A stretch of 14,915 nt of DNA, taken from IMG/VR virus record IMGVR_UViG_2537562091_000005; one strand, 5' to 3'. Numbering within the stretch: position 1 is the first letter of the stretch; each line of letters opens with the position of its first letter. The notes beneath the pieces are model-generated. The model was not told the origin of the DNA and searched no databases. It saw only the letters and a list, made by a program, of their open reading frames with translations. Position numbers and translations under genes: made by a program. Positions 1,237 to 14,915 of this stretch are shown here, piece after piece. Source of the stretch: a virus. Taxonomy: Duplodnaviria > Heunggongvirae > Uroviricota > Caudoviricetes.

Positions 1237-1237
1237 A

Positions 1238-1453
1238 TCATGAGTCTTTGATAAACTGATTTATCTTTGGATAGTTGTACCAGATAATCCCTCGTTTGCT
1301 GTCTGGCTTACCTAAAGGAGATACTCGTTTGAAGTGGAAGCCCTCCACCCAACAGTTCTGGCGGTATGCTTCAATTTGTCTGGCCCCCAGACCAGTGCGA
1401 AGCATCAGGCCGTATTCAACCATCCACTCTTCATTAAAGATTACTTGTGCCAT
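1238..1453 (-). CDS. xisR: Excisionase-like protein (XisR/YdaQ-like), 71 aa from the ATG with a Shine-Dalgarno (SD); ORF track extends to 1477
   Basis: Small ORF directly upstream of int on the same strand. The second in-frame ATG ([10 protein letters not shown]...) is preceded by GAGGTG with a 5-nt spacer, so I prefer 1453 as the start; the upstream ATG at 1477 has no SD. Position and size match an excisionase. Function is inferred from synteny and memory. Confidence 0.65.
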
Positions 1454-1531
1454 CGCATCACCTCTGGCAGGCGCCAATGTTAGACTGAAATTGACGCCCG
1501 ATGTTGATTATTCATAATCAGCTATGAAGTT

Positions 1532-1741
1532 TTAATTTGAATACAATGCAATTCTCGAGGACTGAAGTTTCTCGCAATTAAAATTTATCAGTTTTACTTT
1601 CTGCTCTCTGGAAACGCCTGCTTCTTTTTTACCTGAGAGCATTTTTTCGCATTCTGATTTCGTTAGTTTAGATTTTGAATATCTTGTCCAGTTAGTAGGA
1701 GTGCCACCTTCCTTTTCAATAGTGGCGGTAATTTTATACAT
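1532..1741 (-). CDS. ydaC: Small prophage protein (YdaC-like, 69 aa), function unknown
   Basis: Minus-strand ORF; the preferred start (MYKITATIEKEGG...) has GGAGG 5 nt upstream, and the longer 93-aa version starts without an SD. The int-xis-ydaC order matches the Rac left arm as I remember it. The symbol rests on synteny, not verified homology. Confidence 0.5.
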   Translation of the reverse strand: MYKITATIEKEGGTPTNWTRYSKSKLTKSECEKMLSGKKEAGVSREQKVKLINFNCEKLQSSRIALYSN

Positions 1742-1995
1742 GAACACCTCCATTATTATTTCCAGTGGTTCGTTTATTCCATCTTTCGAGTGCTTCTTTT
1801 TCACTTCCACCATAACCGGTTCGGGATTCGCATCCGTTACCCTGGAACGCCGTGCATTACTGGCGGCGCAGGAAGCGTTAAGTACGGCAATTGATGCGCA
1901 TGATGATGCAGTCCAAGCCGTTTACCGGAAAGCGCATTTCAGCGGCGGCGGTTCTCCTAGCGATTCTGTCGTAGTGCATTGATTGAAATTAATCG

Positions 1996-2017
1996 TACCG
2001 AACTGTTTTGTTCGGTA
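1996..2017. promoter_or_regulatory. Inverted repeat TACCGAAC-N6-GTTCGGTA upstream of the ydaW-like gene (operator or weak terminator candidate)
   Basis: Perfect 8-bp arms (1996..2003 and 2010..2017) with a 6-nt loop, seen directly. No clean U-run on either strand, so an operator or RNA structure is more likely than an intrinsic terminator. A TTGAAA -35-like hexamer lies at 1984..1989. Confidence 0.3.
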
Positions 2018-2027
2018 TCAGTTAAAT

Positions 2028-2445
2028 GTAACGCTGCGAGCGTTACAAGGTGAAAACAAATGGCTTCAAACTGGATAAAGCTCGAAGTTATTACGCCGGA
2101 TAAGCCGGAAATATTCAGGCTTGCTGAGATTCTGAATATTGATCCAGATGCCGCATTAGGGAAAGTCATTCGCTTCTGGGCATGGGCGGATCAACAAATG
2201 ATAGACGGTAACGCAGAGTGTAACGCTCGCGGCGTTACAAAAAGTGCAATAGATCGCATCACTTTTATGGCTGGTTTTGCTGATGCGTTAATTCAGGTTG
2301 GATGGCTGGTCGAAACTAATGGTGTGTTGTCGCTTCCTAACTTTGAGCGCCATAACGGGAAAAGCTCTAAAAAACGGGCGGTTACAAACGAGAGAGTAAC
2401 AAAAATACGAGAACTGAAACGAAAAGGTAACGCTGCCAGCGTTAC
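2028..2445. repeat. Dispersed family of 19-bp perfect palindromes GTAACGCT-N-AGCGTTAC, each followed by an A-run
   Basis: Seen directly: 2028..2046 GTAACGCTGCGAGCGTTAC; 2220..2238 GTAACGCTCGCGGCGTTAC (extra half-site GTAACGC at 2209..2215); 2427..2445 GTAACGCTGCCAGCGTTAC; degenerate copy GTTAC-N10-GTAAC at 2381..2400. Copy 1 ends 1 nt upstream of the SD of the ydaW-like gene (2047..2053); the others lie inside its coding sequence in the same codon phase (encoding N-A-x-x-V-T-K). Confidence 0.7.
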
Positions 2446-2563
2446 AAAAACGGATCAAAAAGCGTTATCTGCATCATCGTCTGCCTGTCATGGGCTGTTA
2501 ATCATTACCGTGATAACGCCACCGCCTACAAAGAGCAGCGCGACAAAAATGCCAGAGAACTGA
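2060..2563 (+). CDS. Phage protein, YdaW-like N-terminal fragment; last ~30 codons are out-of-frame Rz sequence (pseudogene-like fusion)
   Basis: ATG at 2060 with SD AAGGTGA 6 nt upstream. The N-terminal ~130 aa ([46 protein letters not shown]...) look like a real phage protein, possibly DNA-binding or replication-associated. From about 2461 the ORF reads through the Rz N-terminal region in another frame (ending ...[19 protein letters not shown]), which indicates a deletion fusion. Family assignment is uncertain. Confidence 0.5.
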
Positions 2564-2895
2564 AGCTGGCGAACGCGGCAATTACTGACATGCAGATGCG
2601 TCAGCGTGATGTTGCTGCGCTCGATGCAAAATACACGAAGGAGTTAGCTGATGCGAAAGCTGAAAATGATGCTCTGCGTGATGATGTTGCCGCTGGTCGT
2701 CGTCGGTTGCACATCAAAGCAGTCTGTCAGTCAGTGCGTGAAGCCACCACCGCCTCCGGCGTGGATAATGCAGCCTCCCCCCGACTGGCAGACACCGCTG
2801 AACGGGATTATTTCACCCTCCGGGAACGACTGGTAATGATGCAGGCCCAACTTGAAGGTGCTCAGCAATACATAACCGAACAGTGTTTAAAGTAA
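2464..2895 (+). pseudogene. rzpR: Rz-like inner-membrane spanin gene, 5'-truncated (start and first ~12 codons lost)
   Basis: The frame open from 2431 translates to ...[102 protein letters not shown]..., which I recognise as lambda Rz from its TM segment onward. There is no start codon upstream of the TM segment; the first ATG (2590) gives a 101-aa product lacking the membrane anchor. Confidence 0.8.
2651..2836 (+). CDS. rzoR: Rz1-like outer-membrane lipoprotein spanin (o-spanin), 61 aa, nested in the +1 frame of Rz
   Basis: [24 protein letters not shown]... has a signal peptide with lipobox LVVVGC and a proline-rich mature part ([15 protein letters not shown]), typical of Rz1. SD AAGGAG lies 7 nt upstream of the ATG. 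The embedded arrangement inside Rz is the classical spanin architecture. Confidence 0.85.
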
Positions 2896-2981
2896 AATCT
2901 TAACTACAATATGATTCATTTTGATGATTGTTTCATAAGGAACAGTGAAGTAAGATCTAAGAGGAGTTAAATTTTATACAG

Positions 2982-3015
2982 TATAATCATAATATTGCAG
3001 CAAGGTGGTTATAAT
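2982..3015 (+). promoter_or_regulatory. Putative promoter -10 elements upstream of trkG (TATAAT at 2982..2987 and 3010..3015)
   Basis: AT-rich intergenic region with two perfect TATAAT hexamers; no good -35 match. Pattern-based only. Confidence 0.2.
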
Positions 3016-3032
3016 TGAAAGAATATTTAGAT

Positions 3033-4490
3033 ATGAATACATCTCATGTAAGAGTTGTTACTCATATGTGTGGGTTCCTGGTTTGGCTCTATAGTCTTTC
3101 AATGTTGCCACCAATGGTTGTAGCATTGTTTTATAAAGAAAAAAGCCTGTTCGTTTTCTTTATAACTTTCGTTATATTTTTTTGTATTGGTGGCGGAGCG
3201 TGGTATACAACTAAGAAATCTGGCATTCAATTACGTACCCGTGATGGGTTTATTATAATTGTAATGTTTTGGATTTTGTTTTCTGTTATTAGTGCATTCC
3301 CTTTATGGATTGACTCAGAACTTAATTTAACGTTCATTGATGCTCTGTTTGAAGGGGTTTCTGGAATAACAACAACAGGAGCAACTGTAATTGATGATGT
3401 TAGTTCATTACCTCGGGCATATTTGTACTATCGGTCACAGTTAAATTTTATAGGTGGTTTAGGAGTTATTGTTCTGGCGGTTGCTGTATTGCCATTATTG
3501 GGTATTGGTGGTGCAAAGCTTTATCAGTCAGAAATGCCGGGGCCATTTAAGGATGACAAACTCACTCCCCGCCTGGCCGATACGTCACGGACACTGTGGA
3601 TAACTTATTCTTTATTAGGTATTGCTTGTATTGTCTGTTATAGACTTGCAGGAATGCCTTTGTTTGATGCTATTTGTCACGGGATTTCCACAGTTTCGCT
3701 TGGTGGTTTCTCAACTCATAGCGAGAGTATCGGATATTTTAATAACTATTTGGTTGAGCTGGTGGCTGGTTCTTTTTCCCTGCTATCGGCTTTCAACTTC
3801 ACTCTTTGGTATATTGTTATTAGCAGGAAAACGATAAAACCTTTAATCAGAGATATTGAACTTCGTTTCTTTCTGTTAATAGCCTTAGGGGTGATCATTG
3901 TTACCTCTTTCCAGGTCTGGCATATAGGTATGTATGACTTGCATGGAAGTTTTATTCATTCGTTTTTTCTTGCCAGCTCCATGCTCACTGATAATGGTTT
4001 AGCTACGCAGGATTATGCAAGCTGGCCCACGCACACGATAGTGTTTTTGCTGTTGTCAAGTTTCTTTGGGGGATGTATAGGTTCAACTTGTGGTGGAATT
4101 AAGTCACTTCGATTTCTTATACTTTTCAAACAAAGCAAACACGAGATAAATCAGCTTTCTCATCCCAGAGCGTTGTTGAGTGTAAATGTAGGAGGGAAGA
4201 TAGTTACAGATCGTGTAATGAGGTCTGTATGGAGTTTCTTTTTTCTTTATACTCTCTTCACGGTGTTTTTTATACTGGTGTTAAATGGTATGGGATATGA
4301 TTTTCTTACATCATTTGCAACAGTGGCTGCATGTATTAATAATATGGGATTAGGTTTTGGGGCTACTGCATCGTCATTCGGAGTGCTTAATGACATTGCA
4401 AAATATTTAATGTGCATAGCTATGATTCTTGGTCGCCTTGAAATTTATCCTGTTATTATATTGTTTTCAGGTTTTTTTTGGCGCTCCTAA
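3033..4490 (+). CDS. trkG: Trk-system potassium uptake membrane protein TrkG (prophage-encoded moron), 485 aa
   Basis: Polytopic membrane protein (MNTSHVRVVTHMCGFLVWLYSLSMLPPMVVALFYKEK...) with repeated glycine-rich selectivity-filter-like motifs typical of TrkH/TrkG; recognised as Rac TrkG. Markedly AT-rich relative to neighbours. Start ambiguity: ATG 3033 has no SD, whereas in-frame TTG 3015 is preceded by AAGGTGG at a 6-nt spacing. Confidence 0.9.
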   Translation: MNTSHVRVVTHMCGFLVWLYSLSMLPPMVVALFYKEKSLFVFFITFVIFFCIGGGAWYTTKKSGIQLRTRDGFIIIVMFWILFSVISAFPLWIDSELNLTFIDALFEGVSGITTTGATVIDDVSSLPRAYLYYRSQLNFIGGLGVIVLAVAVLPLLGIGGAKLYQSEMPGPFKDDKLTPRLADTSRTLWITYSLLGIACIVCYRLAGMPLFDAICHGISTVSLGGFSTHSESIGYFNNYLVELVAGSFSLLSAFNFTLWYIVISRKTIKPLIRDIELRFFLLIALGVIIVTSFQVWHIGMYDLHGSFIHSFFLASSMLTDNGLATQDYASWPTHTIVFLLLSSFFGGCIGSTCGGIKSLRFLILFKQSKHEINQLSHPRALLSVNVGGKIVTDRVMRSVWSFFFLYTLFTVFFILVLNGMGYDFLTSFATVAACINNMGLGFGATASSFGVLNDIAKYLMCIAMILGRLEIYPVIILFSGFFWRS

Positions 4491-4576
4491 TATATGGCTG
4501 ATTTATAATTGTGAGTTTAATATTATGTTGACTCACTCATTGATCCAATACCTAACTTTACCAGCAACACCTCCGC

Positions 4577-4610
4577 CCCCAGTAGCACTGGCTGCTGGGG
4601 TGCGTTTTAT
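4577..4610 (+). terminator. Possible intrinsic terminator downstream of trkG
   Basis: CCCCAG (4577..4582) pairs with CTGGGG (4595..4600) around a 12-nt loop, followed by TGCGTTTTATT. The long loop makes it a weak candidate. Confidence 0.3.
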
Positions 4611-4627
4611 TCATAAAGCAAGGATGT

Positions 4628-5419
4628 ATGAGCGAGAAATTAAAGATAGTCTATCGCCCATTACAAGAATTGTCACCGTATGCGCACAACGCCAGGACGC
4701 ACAGCCCTGAGCAGGTGGCACAACTGGTAGAAAGTATTAAGCAATTCGGCTGGACTAATCCGGTGCTGATTGACGAAAAGGGCGAAATTATTGCGGGTCA
4801 CGGTCGTGTTATGGCGGCTGAAATGCTCAAAATGGATTCTGTTCCGGTCATTGTTCTGTCTGGCCTGACGGATGAGCAGAAAAAGGCGTACCGCCTGGCA
4901 GATAATCGCCTGCCGATGAATGCTGGCTGGGATGAAGATCTGTTGCGGATGGAGCTGTCGGACCTAATCAATGCTGATTTTGATGTCTCCCTGACAGGCT
5001 TCATCCCGACAGAAATTGATGAACTGTTGACGGATGTTTTGCCCGGTACAGGAAATGAGGAGGAGCCGTATACGACGAAAATTGATACGCCTGTTTATGA
5101 GCCGTCGGGCGGTAAACCGGATATCAGTGAACTGTACGACGATACGAAAACGCAGGAGCTGATCAGCCGGATACGTTCGGCTTCCCTTGAGCCTGATATT
5201 GAGAAATTCCTCCTGTGTGCGGCAGAACGTCACACGGTGTTTAATTTCAGCAGAATTGCGGACTATTACGCTCACGCCCCCGCTGAAATTCAGTGTTTTT
5301 TCGAGGAGTCGGCGCTGGTGATCATTGATTATCAGCAGGCTATTGAAAATGGATTTGTCCGGATGACGCAGCGCATGGTGGAGATCATGCATGGTGGTGA
5401 GGAGGAGGAATATGCGTGA
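4628..5419 (+). CDS. ParB-like nuclease N-terminal domain protein (ParB/Srx superfamily), 263 aa
   Basis: N-terminal region IVYRPLQELSPYAHNARTHSPEQVAQLVESIKQFGWTNPVLIDEKGEIIAGHGRVMAA fits the ParB N-terminal fold (conserved NAR..S and GHGR motifs), followed by an acidic C-terminal extension. AGGA lies 3 nt upstream of the ATG. No methyltransferase motifs are visible. Confidence 0.7.
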   Translation: MSEKLKIVYRPLQELSPYAHNARTHSPEQVAQLVESIKQFGWTNPVLIDEKGEIIAGHGRVMAAEMLKMDSVPVIVLSGLTDEQKKAYRLADNRLPMNAGWDEDLLRMELSDLINADFDVSLTGFIPTEIDELLTDVLPGTGNEEEPYTTKIDTPVYEPSGGKPDISELYDDTKTQELISRIRSASLEPDIEKFLLCAAERHTVFNFSRIADYYAHAPAEIQCFFEESALVIIDYQQAIENGFVRMTQRMVEIMHGGEEEEYA

Positions 5420-5498
5420 TGATTTTTGCGCCTTTATTCTGACTCACGGGCGACCGGACAAAGTTCTGACTTACCGAACGTTGCGTCGTGCTGGCTAG
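5412..5498 (+). pseudogene. 28-codon gene stub (MRDDFCAFILTHGRPDKVLTYRTLRRAG) with strong SD, likely remnant 5' end of a deleted or frameshifted gene
   Basis: ATG at 5412 is preceded by GGAGGAGGAA and overlaps the ParB-like stop (5417..5419), a coupled arrangement. It stops after 28 codons at TAG 5496..5498. The long capsid ORF is in a different frame. Confidence 0.3.
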
Positions 5499-6544
5499 CA
5501 AAAAACGCAAAAGCTGACGCCGCAGCAAAAGATCAGACGGTAACCGCGCCAGTTGCGCCTGAGGCGAAAACCGAAGATATCGTACCGGGGCCGTCAGCTC
5601 CGAATACCGGTGATCAAAATATTGGCACTGTTGATGTGAAAATTACTAAATCCAAAATGGCACCGGTTAAATGGAATGGTGAAGAACAACTGGCTCTTGG
5701 CCCTTCAGGGACTTACAACACCATTCTGGCTGATCAGTTTAAGCAGGCTTTTCGCGCCCTTGCAAACGAGGTTGAGGCTGATCTTGGTGCGTTGTATTTC
5801 GGTGCTTCCCGCGCCGTGGGAACCGCAGGGACAACGCCGTTTGGTGTTAAAGATGATCTTTCTGATGCTGCTCTGGCTCGTCAGGTTCTGGAGGATAACG
5901 GCGCACCGACAACCGATCTGCAGATGGTGCTTGGCTCCAGTGCCATTGCTAATTTGCGCGGAAAACAGTCTGTACTGTTTAAAGTGAATGAATCCGGCAC
6001 TGAACAGCTACTGCGTGAGGGCGTGTTGGGGCGTCTGGAGGGATTCAATATTCACAGTTCGGCAGGTGTAAAACGAGCGCCAAAGGTTGCTGCAACTGGT
6101 TATCTCGTGAATGGCGAGAAAAAAGAAGGCGATGTTCTTATTTCCATTGATACTGGTTCGGGGAGTATTTCTGCAGGTCAGATTGTTACGTTCGCTGGCG
6201 ATCCGAATCAGTATGTTGTGGCAGCAGCGACCAGCAATCTGATTACTCTTGCAGCGCCCGGACTGCGTCAGGATCTGGCCGATGATACTGCAATCACAGT
6301 TGTTGGCTCCTTTACTGCAAATATGGCGTTTGATCGCAACGCGTTTCTGCTGGCATCCCGTACTCCGGCAATGCCGGAAGGTGGCGATAATGCTGATGAT
6401 GTAATGAATGTTACGGACCCGATTTCAGGGATTACGTTCCAGATTGCACTGTATCGTCAGTATCGCCAGGTGCGCTATGAAGTTGGACTGGCATGGGGTG
6501 TTTCATCAGTGAAGCCGGCACATGGTTGTCTGATTCTTGGTTAA
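5426..6544 (+). CDS. Phage major capsid protein, P22-coat-like family; 5' end appears damaged (no ATG or SD in frame until codon 78)
   Basis: 372-codon frame with segments resembling P22 coat protein from memory (FRALANEVEADLG vs P22 ARKLANNVELKVA; GQIVTFAGD insertion-domain-like region; C-terminal GLAWGVSS). The frame opens at 5423 after a TGA; the only early starts are TTG 5426 (17 nt from the SD) and unsupported GTG 5636 and ATG 5657. Probably a pseudogene or frameshifted gene. Confidence 0.5.
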   Translation: MRLYSDSRATGQSSDLPNVASCWLAKNAKADAAAKDQTVTAPVAPEAKTEDIVPGPSAPNTGDQNIGTVDVKITKSKMAPVKWNGEEQLALGPSGTYNTILADQFKQAFRALANEVEADLGALYFGASRAVGTAGTTPFGVKDDLSDAALARQVLEDNGAPTTDLQMVLGSSAIANLRGKQSVLFKVNESGTEQLLREGVLGRLEGFNIHSSAGVKRAPKVAATGYLVNGEKKEGDVLISIDTGSGSISAGQIVTFAGDPNQYVVAAATSNLITLAAPGLRQDLADDTAITVVGSFTANMAFDRNAFLLASRTPAMPEGGDNADDVMNVTDPISGITFQIALYRQYRQVRYEVGLAWGVSSVKPAHGCLILG

Positions 6545-6554
6545 ACATTCAAAC

Positions 6555-6576
6555 GGGGCTTCGGCCCCATTTTTAA
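6555..6576 (+). terminator. Intrinsic terminator immediately downstream of the capsid gene
   Basis: GGGGC (6555..6559), TTCG tetraloop, GCCCC (6564..6568), then ATTTTTAA, beginning 11 nt after the capsid stop. Confidence 0.6.
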
Positions 6577-6586
6577 TGGAGGGCAT

Positions 6587-6763
6587 ATGGCCGGATTAAC
6601 TAAAGAGCAAAGAGCACAGCGTGAAGCCGCACAAAAAACGCAAATTGAGTTAGTGGTTATGGTGACCGATTATCAGATGTTTCCCGGCGCACCAACTATC
6701 GCTAATGTTCATCCTGATGAAGTTGACAACTGGAAGGCTATGGGCTGGAAAACTCAGGAGTAA
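6587..6763 (+). CDS. Small hypothetical phage protein, 58 aa (not in ORF track)
   Basis: ATG 6587 preceded by GGAGG (4-nt spacer); translation MAGLTKEQRAQREAAQKTQIELVVMVTDYQMFPGAPTIANVHPDEVDNWKAMGWKTQE; stop TAA 6761..6763, 3 nt before the next gene start. It fills the capsid-connector gap with gene-like spacing. Confidence 0.45.
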   Translation: MAGLTKEQRAQREAAQKTQIELVVMVTDYQMFPGAPTIANVHPDEVDNWKAMGWKTQE

Positions 6764-6766
6764 CAC

Positions 6767-7162
6767 ATGATCACTTACGTGACCTGTGATGACGTTGATA
6801 ATGCGTTTGGGAACGCCTGGACGAGTGAGAACGCTAAAAATAAAGCTGTTTTAATGGCTAATGCCTGGCTTAATGGCTTCAACCTGAAAATTAACCCATC
6901 CCGTATTCCGGAAGAGGTAAAACTTGCGGGAGCATATGCAGCCAGAATTGCCTCATTCGGTAAGTTGTTTCAGCAGAAAAATGATTCTGGCGTTGTTATC
7001 AGTAAAGCCGTGTCGGCTGACGGGGTCAGTGTATCGAAATCATTTGCTGAGTTGCCATCAAACAGCACTGTATTGCTTGAACCCGATTTACAGCTTGCGA
7101 TAGCACTGCTGAAACCGTACGGACTTAGTCGCTCACAAGTCAGGGTTGTGAGGGGGGGATAA
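6767..7162 (+). CDS. Putative head-tail connector / head completion protein (gp6-like), 131 aa
   Basis: Compact ORF following the capsid gene; assignment rests on position in the head-completion cassette and size, with no confident motif. Confidence 0.45.
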   Translation: MITYVTCDDVDNAFGNAWTSENAKNKAVLMANAWLNGFNLKINPSRIPEEVKLAGAYAARIASFGKLFQQKNDSGVVISKAVSADGVSVSKSFAELPSNSTVLLEPDLQLAIALLKPYGLSRSQVRVVRGG

Positions 7163-7545
7163 TGGGGCTTCGTGAAGAGATTCAGTCAGAGGTTGCCGCT
7201 GCTTTTGATGAGGATTTAGCGGACGCCGTGAGTGATTTTTCTGGTTCTTACGTTACGCACCGGCACTGGGATCCTGTGACGGAAACTGGCGGCGAATCCA
7301 CCGCAATCTATACCGGGCGAGGCGTGTTGACACGTTATAAGCTGGGCAGAATTGATGGGATTAATATTTTGCATGGTGACCTTAAATTAACCGCTCTGGT
7401 ATGCGAGGTTACGGATAAACCAGCTGTCGACCATATTATTGAGATTTATGATCCTGTATCAAGGCAGTTACAACGATACGAGGTAATTACAGCAAGTGTA
7501 GATCCTTCCGCATCAGTTTACTCTATCCAGTTAAGGAGAGCGTAA
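7162..7545 (+). CDS. Putative head-tail joining / head closure protein, 127 aa
   Basis: Start overlaps the upstream stop (TAATG) with a G-rich SD (AGGGGGGGA). Function assigned from position and size only. Confidence 0.45.
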   Translation: MGLREEIQSEVAAAFDEDLADAVSDFSGSYVTHRHWDPVTETGGESTAIYTGRGVLTRYKLGRIDGINILHGDLKLTALVCEVTDKPAVDHIIEIYDPVSRQLQRYEVITASVDPSASVYSIQLRRA

Positions 7546-7926
7546 ATGGCAAAGGCATGGGATATAGAACCGTCAATATTTGCCGGGATGATTGAGGAAG
7601 ATGTAGGGCTGAAGATTCGCTACATCGCTATTCAGATTCTTACTGCTATTGATATTGCTGCTCCGGTTGATACCGGACGTTTCAGAAATAACAACCTGGT
7701 GTCGTTACAGCATCCCGATTTTGGTATATCTGATAACGTGGATCCGAACGGTACGATTGCTGTTCAGCGTGGGATCGGGGTTATTTCGAAAGCTGCAAAT
7801 TACGGAGTTATTTATATCCAGAATAACCTTCCTTATGCAGAGACTCTTGAAAACGGTCATTCACAACAAGCGCCAACTGGCGTGTATGCCAACGCTTTTC
7901 ATGGTGTTTTACAGGCTTACAAATGA
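7546..7926 (+). CDS. HK97 gp10-like neck / tail-completion protein, 126 aa
   Basis: Contains PVDTGRFRNN and LPYAETLENG, resembling the gp10-family signature (DTG..R ... YA..vE.G) from memory. Starts immediately after the upstream stop. Confidence 0.6.
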   Translation: MAKAWDIEPSIFAGMIEEDVGLKIRYIAIQILTAIDIAAPVDTGRFRNNNLVSLQHPDFGISDNVDPNGTIAVQRGIGVISKAANYGVIYIQNNLPYAETLENGHSQQAPTGVYANAFHGVLQAYK

Positions 7927-8360
7927 CGTTTACTGAAATCAGAAATACGGTTATTTCCAGAATGACGGCACAGACGATTATTGATGGAAAAGACGTATTG
8001 TATCCGAACGCGCCAACGTTCGATCCTTCCGGTAAGTTAATCTGGGCGCGGTTAAGTAATATTCCCGGGCAGGCTGGAGTTAATGAAATTGGCGCGGGGC
8101 CGATTGTTTATCGCACGGGGATAATCATTATTCAGTTATTTGTCCCCGCAGGTTCTGGTTCAAAACTCATTACTGAGACAGCCGATAAATTGCGGGAACT
8201 GTTTGAGTTTCAGGATGACGATCGTCTCAGTTACCAGGCTGTTTCCTCAACCAGCCAGACTACTGCGGACAGAATAACAGCACATAATTTACGCATAATT
8301 ACCTCTCGCTTTTCTGCAATAAAAAAGGCGCCATTTCTGGCGCCCGTATCTGGGTTATAA
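7923..8360 (+). CDS. Putative tail terminator / neck protein, 145 aa; 3' end runs through an opposite-strand terminator (possibly chimeric C-terminus)
   Basis: ATGA overlap with the upstream gene. The last ~15 codons (…SAIKKAPFLAPVSGL) are encoded by the hairpin that serves as terminator of the convergent J fragment, so the C-terminus may derive from a rearrangement joint. Confidence 0.45.
   Translation: MTFTEIRNTVISRMTAQTIIDGKDVLYPNAPTFDPSGKLIWARLSNIPGQAGVNEIGAGPIVYRTGIIIIQLFVPAGSGSKLITETADKLRELFEFQDDDRLSYQAVSSTSQTTADRITAHNLRIITSRFSAIKKAPFLAPVSGL
8320..8344 (-). terminator. Intrinsic terminator for the minus-strand J fragment
   Basis: On the minus strand: GGCGCCA, GAAA loop, TGGCGCC, then TTTTTTATT, beginning about 20 nt past the J stop (stem at plus 8327..8333 and 8338..8344; A-run 8321..8326). 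Confidence 0.6.
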
Positions 8361-8363
8361 AAT

Positions 8364-10925
8364 TCAGCTAATCGTGATGCCTGCAGTGGCTTTCTTCATC
8401 ACAACAACCAGCAAATCGCTGATACTTGCTGTGGGATACCAACCATTTACCCACCATGCTGATACAGAAAACTCCAGTGTCATTACGCCACTGCCTGCTG
8501 GCATATCAATAACACCCGTGTAAATCAGAGTATTATCCAGAGCCGTTCGGTTATAAATTTCAGCCCCGTTTTTCTTCACTATCAGGCGGCATGACGAATA
8601 AGTATCGCTATTCTCCCGCTCATGTCTGGCACCGCTGAAAGCCACCGCTGGAATAACAATTTGCCGGTCAAACGGCTGATCGTCATAAACCCTGACGGTA
8701 ATGGTCCCTGATGGCCACCGCTCCGGTGCACGGGAGTCCCGGGGGAAAGCTTTGCCCACTGTTTTAACGAGATCGCCTTCAATCTGGTTCGCGGACAGTT
8801 TTCCCAGAACCCGACAGTTCTCGTTAATCGTGACGTTGTTGAGCGTCCCGGAGTTCGCATTCACGCTACCGCTGATATCGGCATTTTTCGCCGTCAGCCG
8901 CCCGTCCGGTGTCAGGGAAAATGCCGGAGGATTACCGCCGCTGGTAATGGTCGGAGCCGTCAGGCGTTTCAGGAACACGTCGTTCATGAATATCTGATCG
9001 CCCTGACCAACAAACATTGGTCTTGTGTTGCCATTAGACGGATCAATAAACGCGATACGGTTAGCGGCAACCAGGAACTGGCTCAGTTTGCCTTCCTCCG
9101 TATCCTCCATGCTGAGGCCAAGCCCCGCGACATAATGCCTGCCGTCTTCGGTCTGCTCAATTTTGACGCCCCACATGGCATTCCATTTATCGTTGGCGTC
9201 TTTCCACTCTTTCGAAAACTCCTCCAGTTTGCTGGCGTTATCCTCCGTCAGCTCGACTTTTTCCAGCAGCTCATTGCCGAGATGGGATTCGGTTATCTGG
9301 CCTTTGAAAAAATCCAGGTAACCTTCCGCATCATCGCTCGCCCGACCAACAGCCTCCACGAATGCCGATTTGCCGACGGTGTTCACACTGCGGATATAAA
9401 AGTAATAATCACGGCCCGGTTTGATATTGGTACTGGCGGCTATCCAGTACAGCGCCGTGCCAAGATAGCGGGCTGTGGTTTCAACCTGTCTGATATCAGC
9501 AACCCGCTTTTCCGAGAACCAGAACTCAAACTGTACCGTCGGATCATAAACGGCAAGATACGGCGTGGCGGTTATCTGAAAATAGCCCGGCGTCAGCTCA
9601 ATCCGCGACGGTGCTGCCGGTGCGGCAATCCGGAACGATACCGATGCCGGATCGCCCTGCTGTCCCCACGCATTTGCCGCCCGGACTGTCAGCCTGTAGT
9701 TCCCCAGCGCCAGCTGCCTGAAGCGGTATGTGTTTTCCGTCGTCCTGGCCGTGCTGACCAGCCGCTCACTGCCGTCGTCCGCTGCCACGGTCAGGCGAAG
9801 CATAAAGCTCACCCCCTTCACCACCTTCGGCGTGTCCCAGCGCGCCAGCACCTGATATTCCCCGCTGTCTGCGGTGACTTCGGCAGTCAGGTGCTGCACT
9901 GCTGGCGGCGTGACACCATTCACCGTGCCGCTCTGGTCGCCGTCAAAGTGCGCCCCGTTATCCACGATGGCTTCTTTTTCCGGTACATGCTGCACGGCGG
10001 TGATGGCATACGTGCCGTCGTCGTTCTCACGGATACTCACGCAGCGGAACAGGCGCTGGCGCAGCGTCGGCAGCTTCAGCCCCCACACGCTGTATCCGGC
10101 AACGCCGTCAGGAACACGACTCACTTTTACCTTCACGCCGTCGGTGACGGACTGGACCTCCACGCTGACCGGATTGCCACTTCCGTCAACCAGGCTTATC
10201 AGCGTGGTACCGGAGGATGGCAGCGTGATTTCACGGTCGAGCGTCAGCGTCCGGGTCTGGCTGTTCACCGCCAGCACGCGCCCGCCGATGCTGATACCCG
10301 CATAGTCATCATCGCAGATTTCAATGACATCCCCCGGTACATGGCGAAGCCCTTCTGCGCCCACGCTGAAGTCCACGGTCTGCGTTTCCAGCAGCTCCGT
10401 TTTAATCAGCCACAGCCCGGCGCGGTGTGCCTGCCCCCGACTGGTACAGCCAAAGGCATCCATCTTCGTGACGTTACGGCCGTAACGGGCAATGGCCTGC
10501 GTATCCTCCACGAGCTCTGTCGCCGTCTCCCAGCCGTTATCCGGGTCAATCCAGTTCACCTCAACGGCATTATGGCGGTCCTTCAGGGCGCTGAAGCTGT
10601 AGCGGAACGGCGCGCCATCATCCGGCATCACCACATTACTGCGGTTATAGGTCCACACCTTATCCGACGGTCGGTCCTGCACGAACGTCAGCGTCTGCCC
10701 GTTCCATACCGGCATACAGCGCATCGCCGAGCAGAAATCACTGAGCACATCCCACGCCTTGCGCTGTGTGGTCAGCCAGGCATTACAGGTAATGCGCGGC
10801 TCCGTGCCGCCAAAGCCGTCCGGCACTGACTGGTCGCAGTACTGGCCGATGACATACAGCGCCCATTTGTCCACATCCGCCGCACCAAGACGTTTCCCCA
10901 TGCCGTAGCGCGGGTGGGTCAGCAT
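8364..10925 (-). pseudogene. Lambda J-like host-specificity / tail-tip protein, N-terminally truncated and inverted relative to lom and stf
   Basis: From [50 protein letters not shown]... to the C-terminus the translation closely matches lambda gpJ as I recall it, including FN3-like repeats and the C-terminal receptor-binding region. About 280 N-terminal residues of a ~1130-aa J are absent. The ORF-track extension to 11030 (GTG start, 35 non-J codons) is antisense to lom and has no SD. Confidence 0.8.
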
Positions 10926-11171
10926 ATGGCTTACAGCCGAGTGTCGACCTTCTCCGGGGATTATCTCCGCGTAACTGACAACAAGGGGAAAACGCACGAT
11001 GTGCTGACCGGAAGTGATGACGGTCGCCACAGCAATACGTCTCTGGCGTGGGGGGCTGGCGTGCAGTTTAACCCGACCGAATCCGTGGCCATTGATATTG
11101 CTTATGAAGGCTCCGGCAGTGGTGACTGGCGCACTGACGGTTTCATCGTGGGTGTCGGTTATAAATTCTGA
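10926..11171 (+). pseudogene. lom (Ail/Lom family outer-membrane protein) 3' fragment, last ~81 codons only
   Basis: C-terminus ...[43 protein letters not shown] matches the Lom/Ail beta-barrel C-terminus with terminal Phe. The signal peptide and N-terminal two-thirds are missing. Confidence 0.8.
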
Positions 11172-11197
11172 TTAGCCAGGTAACACAGTGTTATGAC

Positions 11198-11226
11198 AGC
11201 CCGCCGGTTCAGGCGGGCTTTTTTGT
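11198..11226 (+). terminator. Intrinsic terminator downstream of the lom fragment
   Basis: AGCCCGCC (11198..11205), GGTTCA loop, GGCGGGCT (11212..11219), then TTTTTTG. Confidence 0.65.
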
Positions 11227-11235
11227 GGAGTGGAT

Positions 11236-13587
11236 ATGGCAGCAGTAAAAATCTCAGGTGTGCTGAAAGATGGTGCGGGAAAACCAATACAGAACTGCAC
11301 TATTCAACTGAAGGCAAAGCGTAACAGCACCACGGTACTGGTGAACACGGTGGCCTCTGAAAATCCGGATGAAGCCGGGCGTTACAGCATGGATGTTGAG
11401 TATGGCCAGTACAGTGTCATCCTGCTGGTTGAAGGTTTTCCGCCTTCACATGCCGGGACCATTACCGTCTATGAAGGTTCCAGACCAGGTACGCTGAATG
11501 ATTTTCTTGGTGCCATGACGGAGGATGATGCCCGTCCGGAGGCACTGCGCCGTTTTGAACTGATGGTGGAAGAAGCAGCACGCAACGCTGAAGCCGCCTC
11601 TCAGAGCGCAGCGGCGGCAAAGAAATCCGAAACTGCAGCGGCATCATCGAAGAACGCGGCGAAAACCTCAGAAACGAATGCAGCTAATAGTGCACAGGCG
11701 GCAGCGACCTCACAGACTGCATCAGCAAACTCCGCGACAGCAGCCAAAAAATCAGAAACCAACGCGAAAAACAGCGAGACAGCCGCAAAGACGAGCGAAA
11801 CCAACGCAAAGTCCAGCCAGACGGCAGCGAAAACCAGCGAAACGAATGCCAAAGCCAGTGAAACTGCGGCAAAAAACAGCCAGGTTGCGGCAGCCGGTTC
11901 TGCGACTTCAGCAGCTGGATCAGCAACTGCTGCGGCTAACAGCCAGAAAGCTGCGAAGACGAGTGAAACTAACGCAAAGTCCAGCCAGACGGCAGCGAAG
12001 ACCAGCGAAACGAATGCCAAAGCCAGCGAAACTGCGGCGAAAAACAGCCAGGATGCAGCAGCCCAAAGCGAGAGTGCCGCAGCTGGTTCTGCAAGTGCGG
12101 CGGCTTCTTCTGCCACTGCATCAGCCAACAGTCAAAAAGCAGCAAAAACCAGTGAAACCAACACAAAGGCGAGCGAGACTGCGGCGACTAACTCGGCGAA
12201 AGCATCCGCTGCAAGCCAGATGGCTGCAAAAGCAAGTGAAGACGCAGCCAGAGAGTATGCAAGCCAGGCAGCAGAGCCGTATAAATATGTCTTACAGCCA
12301 CTGCCTGATGTGTGGATACCGTTTAATGACTCGATGGATATGATTACAGGATTTGGCCCGGGATATAAAAAAATAACAGTGCGCGATGATGTGGTCACTA
12401 TACCATCCGACAAAATTGTCCCGTTTTCCCGCGCGAGTTCCGCGACCTATATCAATAAGTCCGGCGCTCTTACCATTGCAGAAATTAATGAGCCACGTTT
12501 TGAAAAAGAAGGGCTGTTAATTGAAGGGCAGAGAACAAATTACTTCACAAACTCAAACGCTCCGGAATTGTGGAATAAAAATCCAGGCCTGAAGATAAGC
12601 GAGACAAAAACCGATTCCAGGGGTTTTAAATATGCAACGTTTACCCCAGAAAAATATTTAGATAGTTCTGGCTCATATGGAATTATATCAGGGGCAGCAG
12701 CAAATAAGATAGCGGTAGTCAAAAATGATGCAGTTACAATATCCTTTAGAGCAAAAGGGGATAATGTAAGATTTGCGGCTAGATTTGATAAAGGGGATTC
12801 GCCAGTTGCTGTAGCTGCCATTTTTATTGATAGCGCCACACTAGATACATTCACGTCTGGAGCAGATGCGTCTAATATTGCTGTGAAAAATGTTGTTCGT
12901 GACGGTGAGTGGGTTGCTGTAGAGGCTGTTTATAAAGTAACAGACGACTCTACATATATTAACGGCGCCATTCTGATGTCAAACAAACTGGGTGCTAATT
13001 TTGATAAGACTAGTTTTATGGATGTAACCACCCCTCAAATAGAGCTAGGTTCTTGCTTATCATCATTTATTGTCACTCCAGGTGTTCCTGCGACAAGGGC
13101 GAGTGATATGGTTATTTTTTCAACCAGAAATAACATAAGTTCTGTCCCTTTAAGCTGTCTTGTTGAAATACATAAAAATTGGGACTCTACGCCAAATCAG
13201 GCCCCACGAATTTTAACCACTATTGGCGTGGCGACTAATGATGAACAACTGGTATTGGCTTTCAGGACGCCTACAAGTCCGGATGTAGAACCTTTACCTT
13301 ATGTTCAGTTTGGAGTGAGATCTGCATATCTTAGTCCATCTGTGAAGGCCGGGCGCAAAATGATTGCTGGTTTTGTCTGTAATAGCTCGACTGAATTTCG
13401 TTGCTGTTGTAATGGTTACCTGTCACCTGTTCAGACTTCGTCATGGAAGAATACCGGAGCTGCACATGAAATACGTATTGGGGGAACTTCTGCTGGAGGA
13501 GAACGTCACTTGTTTGGTCACGTTCGTAACCTGAGAATATGGCATAAAGAATTAACTGATGCGCAAATGGGGGAGAGTATTAAATGA
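11236..13587 (+). CDS. Side tail fibre protein, mosaic: lambda-Stf-like N-terminus, Ala/Ser/Thr tandem-repeat shaft, divergent C-terminal region with possible lectin-like (LamG/concanavalin-type) end
   Basis: ATG 11236 with GGAG 5 nt upstream (ORF track starts at in-frame GTG 11230). The N-terminal ~115 aa (MAAVKISGVLKDGAGKPIQNCTIQLKAKRNSTTVLVNTV...) match the lambda Stf N-terminus from memory. Residues ~120-330 are KTSETNAK-type repeats. The C-terminal ~450 aa are low-GC and end ...GERHLFGHVRNLRIWHKELTDAQMGESIK, reminiscent of LamG-like domain termini; no His-rich GxHxH motifs. Confidence 0.8.
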   Translation: MAAVKISGVLKDGAGKPIQNCTIQLKAKRNSTTVLVNTVASENPDEAGRYSMDVEYGQYSVILLVEGFPPSHAGTITVYEGSRPGTLNDFLGAMTEDDARPEALRRFELMVEEAARNAEAASQSAAAAKKSETAAASSKNAAKTSETNAANSAQAAATSQTASANSATAAKKSETNAKNSETAAKTSETNAKSSQTAAKTSETNAKASETAAKNSQVAAAGSATSAAGSATAAANSQKAAKTSETNAKSSQTAAKTSETNAKASETAAKNSQDAAAQSESAAAGSASAAASSATASANSQKAAKTSETNTKASETAATNSAKASAASQMAAKASEDAAREYASQAAEPYKYVLQPLPDVWIPFNDSMDMITGFGPGYKKITVRDDVVTIPSDKIVPFSRASSATYINKSGALTIAEINEPRFEKEGLLIEGQRTNYFTNSNAPELWNKNPGLKISETKTDSRGFKYATFTPEKYLDSSGSYGIISGAAANKIAVVKNDAVTISFRAKGDNVRFAARFDKGDSPVAVAAIFIDSATLDTFTSGADASNIAVKNVVRDGEWVAVEAVYKVTDDSTYINGAILMSNKLGANFDKTSFMDVTTPQIELGSCLSSFIVTPGVPATRASDMVIFSTRNNISSVPLSCLVEIHKNWDSTPNQAPRILTTIGVATNDEQLVLAFRTPTSPDVEPLPYVQFGVRSAYLSPSVKAGRKMIAGFVCNSSTEFRCCCNGYLSPVQTSSWKNTGAAHEIRIGGTSAGGERHLFGHVRNLRIWHKELTDAQMGESIK
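11590..12240 (+). repeat. In-frame tandem repeats inside stf (11-aa sub-repeats; about 100-nt near-identical copies at a 168-nt period)
   Basis: The peptide AAKTSETNAKSSQTAAKTSETNAKASETAAKNSQ occurs twice, 56 codons apart (about 11786..11885 and 11954..12053). The two copies differ by six synonymous transitions. A third partial copy follows (KAAKTSETNTKASETAA). Confidence 0.75.
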
Positions 13588-13865
13588 AAGATTTAACACT
13601 CAAATTTGCAGACAGGGCCGACTTTTCGGCCTTTATGGAGAGCATTGGCTATTATGATGACGAGTCGATGCAGGATGATATTCTTATTGACGTGATAGGT
13701 AACGTGTACAAAGAAACCGGAGAACTGACTGAAGATGGCGAACCGGTATGTGTTAAGGAAGACGGATATTTTGTAAACGTGCGCATCATTAATGATTCGC
13801 AAATATCGTCATTATTCGATGAATACGTGGTTGCTGTTGAGCATCAACTTCGTGGCTGGATGTGA
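13584..13865 (+). CDS. Small acidic hypothetical protein, 93 aa (possible fibre assembly/accessory factor by position)
   Basis: ATGA start-stop overlap with stf and SD GGGGGAGAG upstream. Acidic composition (MKDLTLKFADRADFSAFMESIGYYDDESMQDDILIDVIGNVYKETGELTEDGEPV...). No similarity to lambda Tfa that I can recognise. Confidence 0.55.
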   Translation: MKDLTLKFADRADFSAFMESIGYYDDESMQDDILIDVIGNVYKETGELTEDGEPVCVKEDGYFVNVRIINDSQISSLFDEYVVAVEHQLRGWM

Positions 13866-13874
13866 GGAAGAAAA

Positions 13875-14915
13875 ATGGCTACATCGACAGTAATTCCTGA
13901 TGACATCAAAACGCTAAAATCCGACGTTAGCAAATTAAAAAACGATCAAGGAAGCTACGCAACAAAATTATATGTAGACAGCAAAGATGAAATCGTTGGT
14001 GACTGGTCTGCTTCATGGTATCAGCAGGTATTGCCAACTAGCGGAGCTATATTTGGGAGAAAACTCCGCTCAACTCACAGGACGGCAGGTGTTGAGGATG
14101 CGTATTGCGAACTATACCTCAAAAAATGGATAGACAGTCCAGGTAACGCAATGGCGCGCCTTAACCTGAACGATAACGGGACAAACATTTGCTGGGACTT
14201 TACCAACCTTTATGGCGGTACGATGATTTTTCCCGGTGACAGCGGATACCTCAAAATGGGTAACTGCCTTATGTCATACAGCAAGCGTGGAAGTAACGCG
14301 CTTATTAAATTTGATTACACCGACACATTACAGATCAAATATGCCAATCATGGGTCAACCATGACATTAAACACACAGGGAACCGCTTATGCTGGTGTTA
14401 CTGCTCAATTGTGGGGCAACACCAGCCGTCCTGTTGTTTATGAAGTCGGTGTTGATGGTGGCGCTTATATGTTCTATGCGCAGAAAAATACCGATAACAC
14501 CTATATGTTAAGCGTTAATGGTGCATGTCATGCCACCGCATTTAACCAGCATTCCGACCGGGATCTGAAAGACAACATTCAGGTGATCGATAATGCAACC
14601 GACCGCATCCGTAAAATGAACGGCTATACATACACGCTTAAAGAAAACGGTATGCCCTATGCTGGTGTCATTGCACAGGAAGCTCTGGAAGCAATCCCAG
14701 AAGTTGTAGGTTCCGCAATGAAATATCAGGACGGTGCAAGCGGATCGGAAGGTGAAGAAGGTGAACGTTATTACACAGTAGATTATTCTGGTGTTACTGG
14801 CTTGCTTGTTCAGGTAGCCAGAGAGTCAGACGACAGAATAACAGCACTGGAAGAAGAAAACGCAGAATTAAGACAAAGATTATCTGCAATTGAGGCGGCG
14901 CTTGCGTCTAAATAA
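13875..14915 (+). CDS. Short tail fibre/tip protein with C-terminal S74-type intramolecular chaperone (autoproteolytic) domain, 346 aa
   Basis: C-terminal ~120 aa (HSDRDLKDNIQVIDNATDRIRKMNGYTYTLKENGMPYAGVIAQEALEAIPEVVGSA...VDYSGVTGLLVQVARESDDRITALEEENAELRQRLSAIEAAL) match the Peptidase_S74 chaperone signature (Ser-x4-Lys dyad, NI..I, GxIAQE, coiled-coil tail). Predicted self-cleavage at Ser227 (codon 14553..14555). SD GAGGAAG upstream of the ATG. Confidence 0.75.
   Translation: MATSTVIPDDIKTLKSDVSKLKNDQGSYATKLYVDSKDEIVGDWSASWYQQVLPTSGAIFGRKLRSTHRTAGVEDAYCELYLKKWIDSPGNAMARLNLNDNGTNICWDFTNLYGGTMIFPGDSGYLKMGNCLMSYSKRGSNALIKFDYTDTLQIKYANHGSTMTLNTQGTAYAGVTAQLWGNTSRPVVYEVGVDGGAYMFYAQKNTDNTYMLSVNGACHATAFNQHSDRDLKDNIQVIDNATDRIRKMNGYTYTLKENGMPYAGVIAQEALEAIPEVVGSAMKYQDGASGSEGEEGERYYTVDYSGVTGLLVQVARESDDRITALEEENAELRQRLSAIEAALASK

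Follow-up and report, generated by a model that had tools for sequence, protein, structure and literature searches.

The last part of a 14,915-nucleotide (nt) stretch of viral DNA (IMG/VR record IMGVR_UViG_2537562091_000005; hereafter the window), which is part of a Rac-like lambdoid prophage of Escherichia coli, carries three consecutive genes: stf, a side tail fibre gene, orf93, which encodes a small acidic protein, and orf346, which encodes a short second fibre (fibre 2). We interpret these, with a probability of roughly 0.6, as encoding the distal end of a side (lateral) tail fibre with a modular design and two components, of a kind common to many E. coli siphoviruses. Stf would be the proximal fibre, built from a lambda-type attachment domain, a repeat shaft, a conserved segment of ~85 amino acids (aa) and two lectin-type jelly rolls, while orf93, co-translated with Stf, would act as an accessory or assembly factor of its distal module. 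The orf346 product would be an exchangeable trimeric fibre whose S74 chaperone aids folding and is cut off at His226/Ser227, exposing the tip, and which may be held at the end of Stf via its N-terminal peptide. The resulting fibre would present two independent receptor-binding units, and the stf 3′ end, orf93 and the 5′ end of the fibre-2 gene could together form a homology block for the reshuffling of Stf alleles and fibre-2 classes. The features of the three genes are as follows.

11230-13587, plus strand: stf, side tail fibre gene in the open reading frame (ORF) list; 785 aa from GTG 11230, full-length match to phrog_1419
11242-11631, plus strand: lambda-type tail-attachment domain, Stf aa 5-134 (Pfam PF08400, phage_tail_N, 225.5 bits, E 2.4e-67)
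11572-12264, plus strand: Ala/Ser-rich repeat shaft, Stf aa ~115-345, with SETNAK/AAKTSETNAK repeats in the translation (Tandem Repeats Finder, TRF); G+C content (GC) 0.55
12295-12549, plus strand: conserved start of the distal module, Stf aa 356-440, 'QPLPDVWIP...EPRFE..GLLIEGQRTNY' (35-sequence alignment)
12517-13101, plus strand: first jelly roll of Stf, aa 430-624, of the gene transfer agent (GTA) head-spike-fibre type (NCBIfam NF048003; phmmer to 6tb9); allele-variable
13048-13554, plus strand: second jelly roll of Stf, aa ~607-775, LamG/ConA-like, ending in the conserved 'HLFGHVRNLRIWHKELTDAQMGESIK'
13584-13865, plus strand: orf93, small acidic protein of 93 aa coupled to stf by an ATGA overlap with its stop; full-length match to phrog_1361 (unknown function)
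13875-14915, plus strand: orf346, short second fibre of 346 aa with a C-terminal intramolecular chaperone, ending on the last base of the window; full-length match to phrog_4563 ('tail fiber protein'), 100% identical to Tritos gp21
13875-13919, plus strand: conserved N-terminal peptide of fibre 2, aa 1-15, MATSTVIPDDIKTLK; proposed docking adaptor
14202-14552, plus strand: fibre-tip body of orf346, aa ~110-226, preceding the putative cleavage site
14553-14912, plus strand: S74 intramolecular chaperone domain, orf346 aa 227-346 (Ser227 codon 14553-14555, Lys232 codon 14568-14570)

Stf combines a lambda-type stem with a hypervariable, lectin-like end

The distal module of Stf encompasses 430 aa, is β-rich and starts with 'QPLPDVWIP' at residue 356 (nt 12295), in a segment that is common to the fibres of other phage families. 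The GC measured in 300-nt windows falls from 0.55-0.56 (11550-12299) to 0.39-0.43 (12300-13050), with the drop located between about 12150 and 12600, so that the switch in composition coincides with the homology boundary in stf. This boundary lies only 5 nt from position 12290, near which the original prediction, made from the sequence by itself, had placed a change from GC-rich repeats to an AT-rich distal region; all the elements that it named were confirmed at the coordinates given. The same prediction described a low-GC cassette, which is accurate insofar as the distal part of stf (0.42), orf93 (0.42) and orf346 (0.44) all have a lower GC than the N-terminal part of stf (0.545), but overstates how foreign they are: the backbone of the prophage (1-8360) has a GC of 0.447, close to that of the cassette, and it is the lambda-like block of J (0.57) and the stf N-terminal part that is GC-rich. 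We therefore rejected a foreign low-GC island; the change in composition is a mosaic joint.

Upstream of the joint, Stf follows the lambda plan, and its PHROG family is labelled 'tail protein'. In a near-identical prophage of E. coli F5505-C1 the annotated stf coding sequence has 783 aa and starts at the equivalent of ATG 11236, which is also the probable start here, rather than GTG 11230. The tandem repeats of the shaft (11736-12113) comprise two copies of a 168-nt unit as well as 42-nt and 21-nt arrays. Several long ORFs overlap stf on both strands between 11601 and 12343 (175 aa on the minus strand, 221 aa and others on the plus strand), all of them inside the Ala/Ser-rich shaft; their translations are of low complexity, and they are most likely artefacts of repeat composition rather than genes.

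Downstream of the joint, the first jelly roll matches NF048003 over almost the entire profile (positions 1-181 of 182, Stf aa 430-624, 56.6 bits against a cut-off of 36), is modelled by AlphaFold2 (AF2) with a predicted local distance difference test score (pLDDT) of about 85-95 and, together with the segment that precedes it, finds the head-spike fibre Rcc01080 of the Rhodobacter capsulatus GTA (RcGTA; 6tb9) by phmmer (E 5.7e-4). The second domain has a jelly-roll β-sandwich fold, and many homologues carry a precomputed PF13385 match.

Conservation is distributed unevenly over this module. It is concentrated in the first ~95 residues, a central strip (TPQIE.GS..SSFI....ATRASD) and the last ~30 residues, while the rest of both sandwiches is variable. 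The most conserved stretch is aa 356-440, with a majority fraction of 0.63-0.91 in the 35-sequence alignment and a low pLDDT in the AF2 monomer model. In 80 prophage loci that we retrieved from IMG/VR with orf93 as the query, the corresponding nucleotides (12295-12549) align at the DNA level in 94-99% of cases, whereas no locus (0/80) has a DNA-level match to nt 12550-13500, even though the flanks of this region are 65-98% conserved and aligned in >90% of the loci. The jelly rolls are thus the allele-variable part of Stf, and hypervariable lectin domains between conserved flanks are as expected of a determinant of host specificity. In cell-binding assays, Rcc01080 recognises the capsular polysaccharide of R. 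capsulatus (PMC10218006), and by homology to this capsule-binding fibre the jelly rolls of Stf probably bind surface polysaccharide as well.

The pair of lectin domains found here (12550-13500) represents a rare allele, and the whole of 12290-14915 is carried by only 6 of 5,426 complete E. coli genomes. Outside these six, the closest allele is that of the virulent T5-like phage T5_ev219 (76.7% nt identity over 12307-13043, 66% at the aa level), which points to module exchange between temperate and virulent phages; this similarity is missed by BLASTP with default settings (composition-based statistics and masking) and is seen when both are switched off. In one IMG/VR locus (L007, 2771-4997), Stf diverges from residue ~716 onwards and ends in '...GRTDVRKFIGEY' instead of RIWHK...GESI, with orf93 and fibre 2 kept; this is probably a frameshifted copy.

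The three genes form a widespread, co-linear cassette

All three proteins have full-length matches in existing PHROG families (1419, 1361 and 4563). The cassette is 95% identical at the nt level in the lambdoid phages Tritos, 2G7b, HannyBb and PhiR63_1 (with 98% aa identity between orf93 and Tritos gp20) and 100% identical over 12290-14915 in F5505-C1, and parts of 12290-14915 match 1,133 of the 5,426 complete E. coli genomes. In each of the 80 IMG/VR loci, the upstream fibre ends in '...HLFGH.RN.RIWHK.LTDAQ.GESI', and wherever the sequence continues downstream, it encodes a fibre starting with 'MATSTVIP.DI..LK'. The same order of a module-bearing fibre, an 85-93-aa ORF and a second fibre is found in the T5-like phages T5_ev219, AKFV33, IrisVonRoten and SelmaRatti, in Nonagvirus ESCO3, in the Drexlerviridae orkinos and KarlJaspers, and in the Dhillonvirus members KarlBarth and LM40P1. 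The distal module of Stf itself is detectable by tblastn in 218 phage records, including rV5-like myoviruses, where it forms the end of a lateral fibre of 1478 aa. Stf alleles and fibre-2 classes occur in mixed combinations.

The arrangement is therefore standard, co-linear and widespread, and represents an already catalogued fibre module. The implication that the cassette is an unusual replacement did not survive this comparison, given the full-length PHROG memberships and the same layout in at least five lineages and all 80 IMG/VR loci; comparative searches largely place it among the standard fibre loci, though the locus is not experimentally well described. The predicted loss of the usual chaperone gene, tfa, on the other hand, was confirmed, as neither Pfam nor NCBIfam returned a Tfa (Caudo_TAP) match anywhere in the window. 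In F5505-C1, a 33-codon pseudogene remnant of the tfa 3′ end lies downstream of the cassette (in the region of L092 18669-19100), followed by the sitABCD iron/manganese transporter cargo, which fits an ancestral stf-tfa end that was overwritten by the cassette.

Relatives of the window prophage also encode a predicted membrane protein of 97 aa after the cassette, as observed in F5505-C1 (L092, 18669-19100), Tritos (L001, 7216-7509) and phage 21 (L084, 5611-5904), with 96% identity between the Tritos and phage 21 proteins. A consensus scan recovered a strong terminator-like hairpin in the gap between the remnant of lom and stf and no promoter-like site between this hairpin and stf; inside the cassette, the scan found neither promoter-like nor convincing terminator-like sites.

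11198-11219, plus strand: terminator-like hairpin between the lom remnant and stf, with an 8-bp stem (7 GC pairs) and a T run (consensus scan); an annotated terminator occupies the corresponding position in phage 21

The second fibre and its putative attachment to Stf

The only Pfam match of orf346 is to the Peptidase_S74 family (PF13884; 52.8 bits against a cut-off of 22, aa 227-278, profile positions 1-57 of 58), and NCBIfam returned nothing for this protein. The S74 region is also similar to the C-terminus of S16 gp37 (6f45; phmmer, E 1.4e-3), and its SDRDLK motif contains a Ser227/Lys232 dyad with the +5 spacing of Ser1264/Lys1269 in T5 pb1 (PMC4690869). The original prediction was accordingly right that an S74 chaperone, which does score in a profile search, is the only recognisable domain of this protein, but its cleavage 'after Ser227' is to be corrected. 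In T5 pb1 the catalytic Ser leaves with the chaperone, and cleavage unmasks receptor binding (PMC4690869); by this precedent, the break would fall between His226 and Ser227, and the mature orf346 protein probably comprises residues 1-226 and ends in His226, assuming that autoproteolysis takes place as in pb1.

The part that would be exposed by such a cleavage (aa ~110-226) has about 30% similarity to tip-proximal segments of P2 gpH, P1 S and related fibres (tblastn), a weak phmmer match to a domain of T4 gp34, and PHROG matches to the C-terminal tips of fibres with 1210-1567 aa. In effect, orf346 consists of the N-terminal peptide, a short variable region and a fibre tip. The peptide is its most notable feature: the motif M-x-T-x-T-x-IP-x-DI-x-x-LK is invariant in 10 representatives from 5 lineages (lambdoid, Nonagvirus, Drexlerviridae, Dhillonvirus and T5-like), in front of bodies that are otherwise unrelated and that fall into classes of 346 aa, 225-234 aa (a coiled coil and S74 only), 557-582 aa ('T-shaped') and 293 aa (Dhillonvirus, without S74).

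In several deposited genomes, the second fibre is annotated as two ORFs (86+168 aa; 98+196 aa) or lacks the N-terminal peptide, as we observed for orkinos (L085, 5602-6340), KarlBarth (L093, 4577-5456), Dru_SM1 (L096, 4694-5904) and KarlJaspers (L094, 4580-5257), where it is labelled a 'putative lateral tail fiber chaperone'. One and the same fibre-2 gene, affected by a frameshift, a sequencing error or mis-annotation, could underlie these cases. In LM40P1, the Dhillonvirus fibre 2 is a single ORF of 293 aa without S74.

As the tails of the phages that bear the motif are unrelated, the Stf module and the small ORF are the only shared possible partners of fibre 2. The same logic was used for LtfB of phage DT57C (Golomidova et al., 2016, PMC4728585), and published structure models of the homologous system in IrisVonRoten show a T-shaped gp24 attached to the proximal gp22, with a galectin-like C-terminal domain in gp22 'that could contribute... 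as an additional RBD' (receptor-binding domain) (Humolli et al., 2025, PMC11990801). The docking of the S74 protein on Stf put forward in the original prediction thus agrees both with the conserved peptide across unrelated tails and with the IrisVonRoten model, but it had already been published for homologues, where it is likewise a prediction.

Alternatively, orf346 could be an independent fibre or tip protein that sits elsewhere on the tail (J, baseplate or collar) and is linked to stf merely by being in the same cassette. It has no detectable similarity to Stf, its S74 trimer would be self-sufficient, phage 21 lacks a homologue of it, and we did not locate a docking site on Stf. We nevertheless consider this quite improbable, because lambdoid, T1-like, Dhillonvirus, 9g-like and T5-like phages do not have related tail tips or collars and yet share the invariant 15 N-terminal residues of fibre 2, which in each of them is encoded after the Stf module and the small ORF. 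Moreover, the tails of the T5-like phages are otherwise as in T5, which has a single Ltf (the argument made for DT57C LtfB; PMC4728585), and in the published model the homologue sits on the proximal fibre (PMC11990801).

Several observations weigh against a two-component fibre ending in lectin domains. The Pfam Laminin_G_3 match on the second jelly roll covers only aa 717-779 and scores 23.3 bits, short of the gathering threshold of 27.6. AF2 models the distal module with only moderate confidence (mean pLDDT 74). The case for docking is made from co-occurrence and from a published prediction for a homologue with 39-41% identity. Phages that lack fibre 2 likewise have the ~85-aa conserved segment of Stf and its conserved C-terminus, so neither region is specific to docking; no distinguishing feature was evident when the two were compared between phages with and without this fibre. 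Phage 21 has Stf and the small ORF and does without fibre 2, which is thus optional. Finally, the tail tube, the tape measure and the 5′ half of J are missing from the window prophage, making a function in situ doubtful.

orf93 accompanies the Stf module

The small ORF was predicted to be acidic and translationally coupled to stf, and it is: its start overlaps the stf stop in an ATGA, and the protein, with 21 acidic and 7 basic residues, has an isoelectric point of 4.05. AF2 predicts a compact α/β fold (pLDDT 82.5) for which we found no informative structural neighbour. No match was found in Pfam or NCBIfam, and no similarity in sequence or fold to the known tail-fibre chaperones Tfa, gp38 and gp57A. 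A match to glyceraldehyde-3-phosphate dehydrogenase (GAPDH) in the PDB (E 0.04) was treated as chance.

A profile search of 1.84 billion representative sequences collected 91 clusters at 50% identity for this family (PHROG 1361), whose members have 85-110 aa and are always stand-alone; fusions of the orf93 domain to fibre proteins were not found in this set, and the few long matches consist of 5-8 short stretches that look like acidic low-complexity sequence. In every lineage examined, the start of the orf93 homologue overlaps or abuts the stop of a fibre gene, and that fibre ends in the GTA-spike-fibre/LamG module. The Stf module is followed by an intact homologue even in phages without fibre 2, namely phage 21 and Lambda_ev087 (54% identity in both) and the rV5-like EmilHeitz (38%), and in phage 21 and Lambda_ev087 the 97-aa membrane protein comes directly after it. 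This ties orf93 to the Stf module and not to fibre 2, contrary to the idea that the small ORF is specific to a partnership with the S74 protein. Rather than an adaptor for fibre 2, it is more likely a factor dedicated to the distal module of Stf, with an accessory or assembly role, possibly as a chaperone, and we favour the view that it takes the place of tfa, being analogous to it in function and unrelated to it.

The main competing explanation is that orf93 is not a chaperone but a structural hinge or adaptor that is kept in the fibre as the connection between the N-terminal peptide of orf346 and the end of Stf, much as the monomeric gp35 lies between the two half-fibres of T4. In every lineage with fibre 2, orf93 stands exactly between the two fibre genes, and one conserved block runs from the stf 3′ end through orf93 to the 5′ end of the fibre-2 gene; its homologue gp23 in IrisVonRoten is annotated as 'tail fiber protein' in BASEL, one sentence in PMC11990801 gives Gp23 as the proximal partner, and a compact, confidently predicted domain would suit such a part. 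The intact homologues in the three phages that lack fibre 2 speak against it, as does the lack of any fusion to a fibre among the representatives searched, and the figure legend in PMC11990801 has gp22, not gp23, as the proximal fibre. We therefore regard a hinge as unlikely, with a chance of about one in four, and retain an accessory factor of the Stf module as the preferred role. More broadly, and still tentatively, the orf93 family may constitute an unrecognised class of tail-fibre accessory proteins, unrelated to Tfa, gp38 and gp57A, that either folds the lectin-tipped end or stays there as a socket for the M.T.T.IP.DI..LK plug of fibre 2.

An intact cassette in a rearranged prophage

The first part of the window (1-8250) matches the Rac regions of many genomes at 99% and includes intR, recE, trkG, the terminase, a DUF4055 portal and a P22-type capsid. 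An intact, near-identical prophage is found in E. coli O25:H16 F5505-C1, in the order capsid, tail tube, tape measure, J, lom, stf, small ORF, second fibre, 97-aa protein, tfa remnant and sitDCBA, after which the chromosome resumes with uspF and ompN. The window aligns to it in three blocks, of which 5489-8250 and 10925-14915 are co-linear and 8248-10927, containing the 3′ part of J and the first 49 nt of lom, is inverted. In comparison to F5505-C1, ~8.5 kb are missing (the 3′ end of the tail terminator gene, the tube, the tape measure, the minor tail genes and the 5′ part of J), as are 304 nt inside lom. Both junctions (8248-8250 and 10925-10927) have 3-nt overlaps, and neither was found in any of the 5,426 complete E. 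coli genomes. What is left of J is an ORF of 888 aa on the minus strand (8364-11030), and the Ail/Lom remnant at 10914-11171, which retains only the 81 C-terminal residues (positions 119-199 of 199 in the Pfam Ail_Lom profile), is a pseudogene made by this inversion and deletion.

The prophage in the window cannot build its own tail, and the cassette, while intact, is not mountable on the virion that it encodes. As the fibre genes are still intact, the rearrangement at 8248-10927 is either a recent event that disabled the prophage or an artefact of the assembly. There is about an even chance that this copy of the cassette has no function left in a prophage that is decaying, and serves only as a store of fibre modules with which infecting phages can recombine. 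The loss of ~8.5 kb of tail genes and of part of lom, the inversion of the J-3′/lom-5′ segment and the absence of the junctions from complete genomes are in line with such a fate, whereas the three ORFs carry no disruption and match those of intact prophages and of free phage Tritos at 99.9-100% identity, so that any decay must be very recent, and a misassembly may also account for the rearrangement. In any case, this concerns the fate of one copy rather than the nature of the cassette, and is compatible with the two-component fibre that we propose.

Implications

A two-component architecture had already been proposed and modelled for homologues, and the current understanding of it is unchanged by our analysis. 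New here are the description of the two lectin-type jelly rolls of Stf, one of them homologous to the RcGTA head-spike fibre, as the hypervariable unit, the conserved plug peptide of fibre 2, whatever its body, and the uncharacterised orf93 family, which accompanies the Stf module even without fibre 2. The cassette is among the commonest fibre ends in E. coli phages, occurs in phages of at least six lineages, and probably determines the O-antigen or capsule types that are accessible to these phages. Should the socket-and-plug reading be true, it would represent a portable system for swapping receptor-binding fibres among lambdoid, T1-like, T5-like, 9g-like and rV5-like phages. The pattern also provides an annotation rule for loci of this kind, where current annotation mostly leaves the small ORF and fibre 2 as 'hypothetical' and at times splits or mislabels them, and candidate junction points for the engineering of host range in lambda-based or T5-based vectors.

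Comparison with known systems

The cassette shares its concept with the branched fibres LtfA/LtfB of DT57C and gp14/gp15 of phiEco32 (PMC4728585), where an S74-bearing second fibre without a tail-binding domain is carried on a first fibre and provides a second specificity. We rejected a homology of the joint to theirs, as the N-termini of LtfB and gp15 (MSRPLMPKSG...) are unrelated to MATSTVIP... and show no BLASTP similarity to that of orf346; LtfA shares with Stf only a low-complexity Ala/Ser shaft, and Stf has no BLASTP match to gp14, whose residues 239-508 are the region expected in a proximal fibre of this type. They also differ in that LtfA has its own S74 domain and in that there is no small ORF between the two genes. 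The likeness is functional only.

For individual parts of the cassette, relationships are found in three further systems. The RcGTA head-spike fibre Rcc01080 (6tb9; NF048003) is homologous to the first jelly roll of Stf and the segment before it, but is a stand-alone protein of 325 aa that is located on the capsid vertices, not in a tail fibre, and for which no S74 partner is described. The chaperones of the T5 pb1/endosialidase type share with orf346 the Pfam S74 domain, the Ser/Lys dyad with +5 spacing and the C-terminal helical bundle, whereas orf346 differs from these proteins by a mature part of ~226 aa that lacks a tail-attachment domain of its own. Lambda Stf/Tfa has the same PF08400 N-terminus, repeat-rich shaft and place after J and lom; its receptor-binding part, in contrast, is unrelated, and the window has a second fibre gene and no Tfa (Caudo_TAP).

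Homologues of all three genes in the same order are found in IrisVonRoten (Bas32, Tequintavirus), whose gp22-gp23-gp24 have the same layout as in AKFV33, T5_ev219 and SelmaRatti. By BLASTP, gp22 is 41% identical to Stf over about 760 aa (E 7e-160) and has the same distal module; gp23 (92 aa) is 38% identical to orf93 (E 1e-25), and its start likewise overlaps the stop of the fibre gene; and gp24 is 39% identical to orf346 over the 31 N-terminal aa and shares S74, with no similarity between the bodies otherwise. The two systems differ at both ends, as gp22 has a T5 pb1-like anchor that is held by the LtfC collar, in place of the lambda phage_tail_N domain of Stf, and fibre 2 of IrisVonRoten is a 'T-shaped' protein of 574 aa with gp12-like and T5-like binding domains, compared to the short fibre of 346 aa encoded here. 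A near-identical cassette is found in the Tritos-type elements (Tritos, 2G7b, HannyBb and PhiR63_1) and F5505-C1, which have the same order of J, lom, stf, small ORF, fibre 2 and 97-aa membrane protein. Tritos carries another allele of the jelly-roll region (its Stf is 67% identical overall), and all of these elements retain complete tail modules, in contrast to the rearranged prophage of the window.

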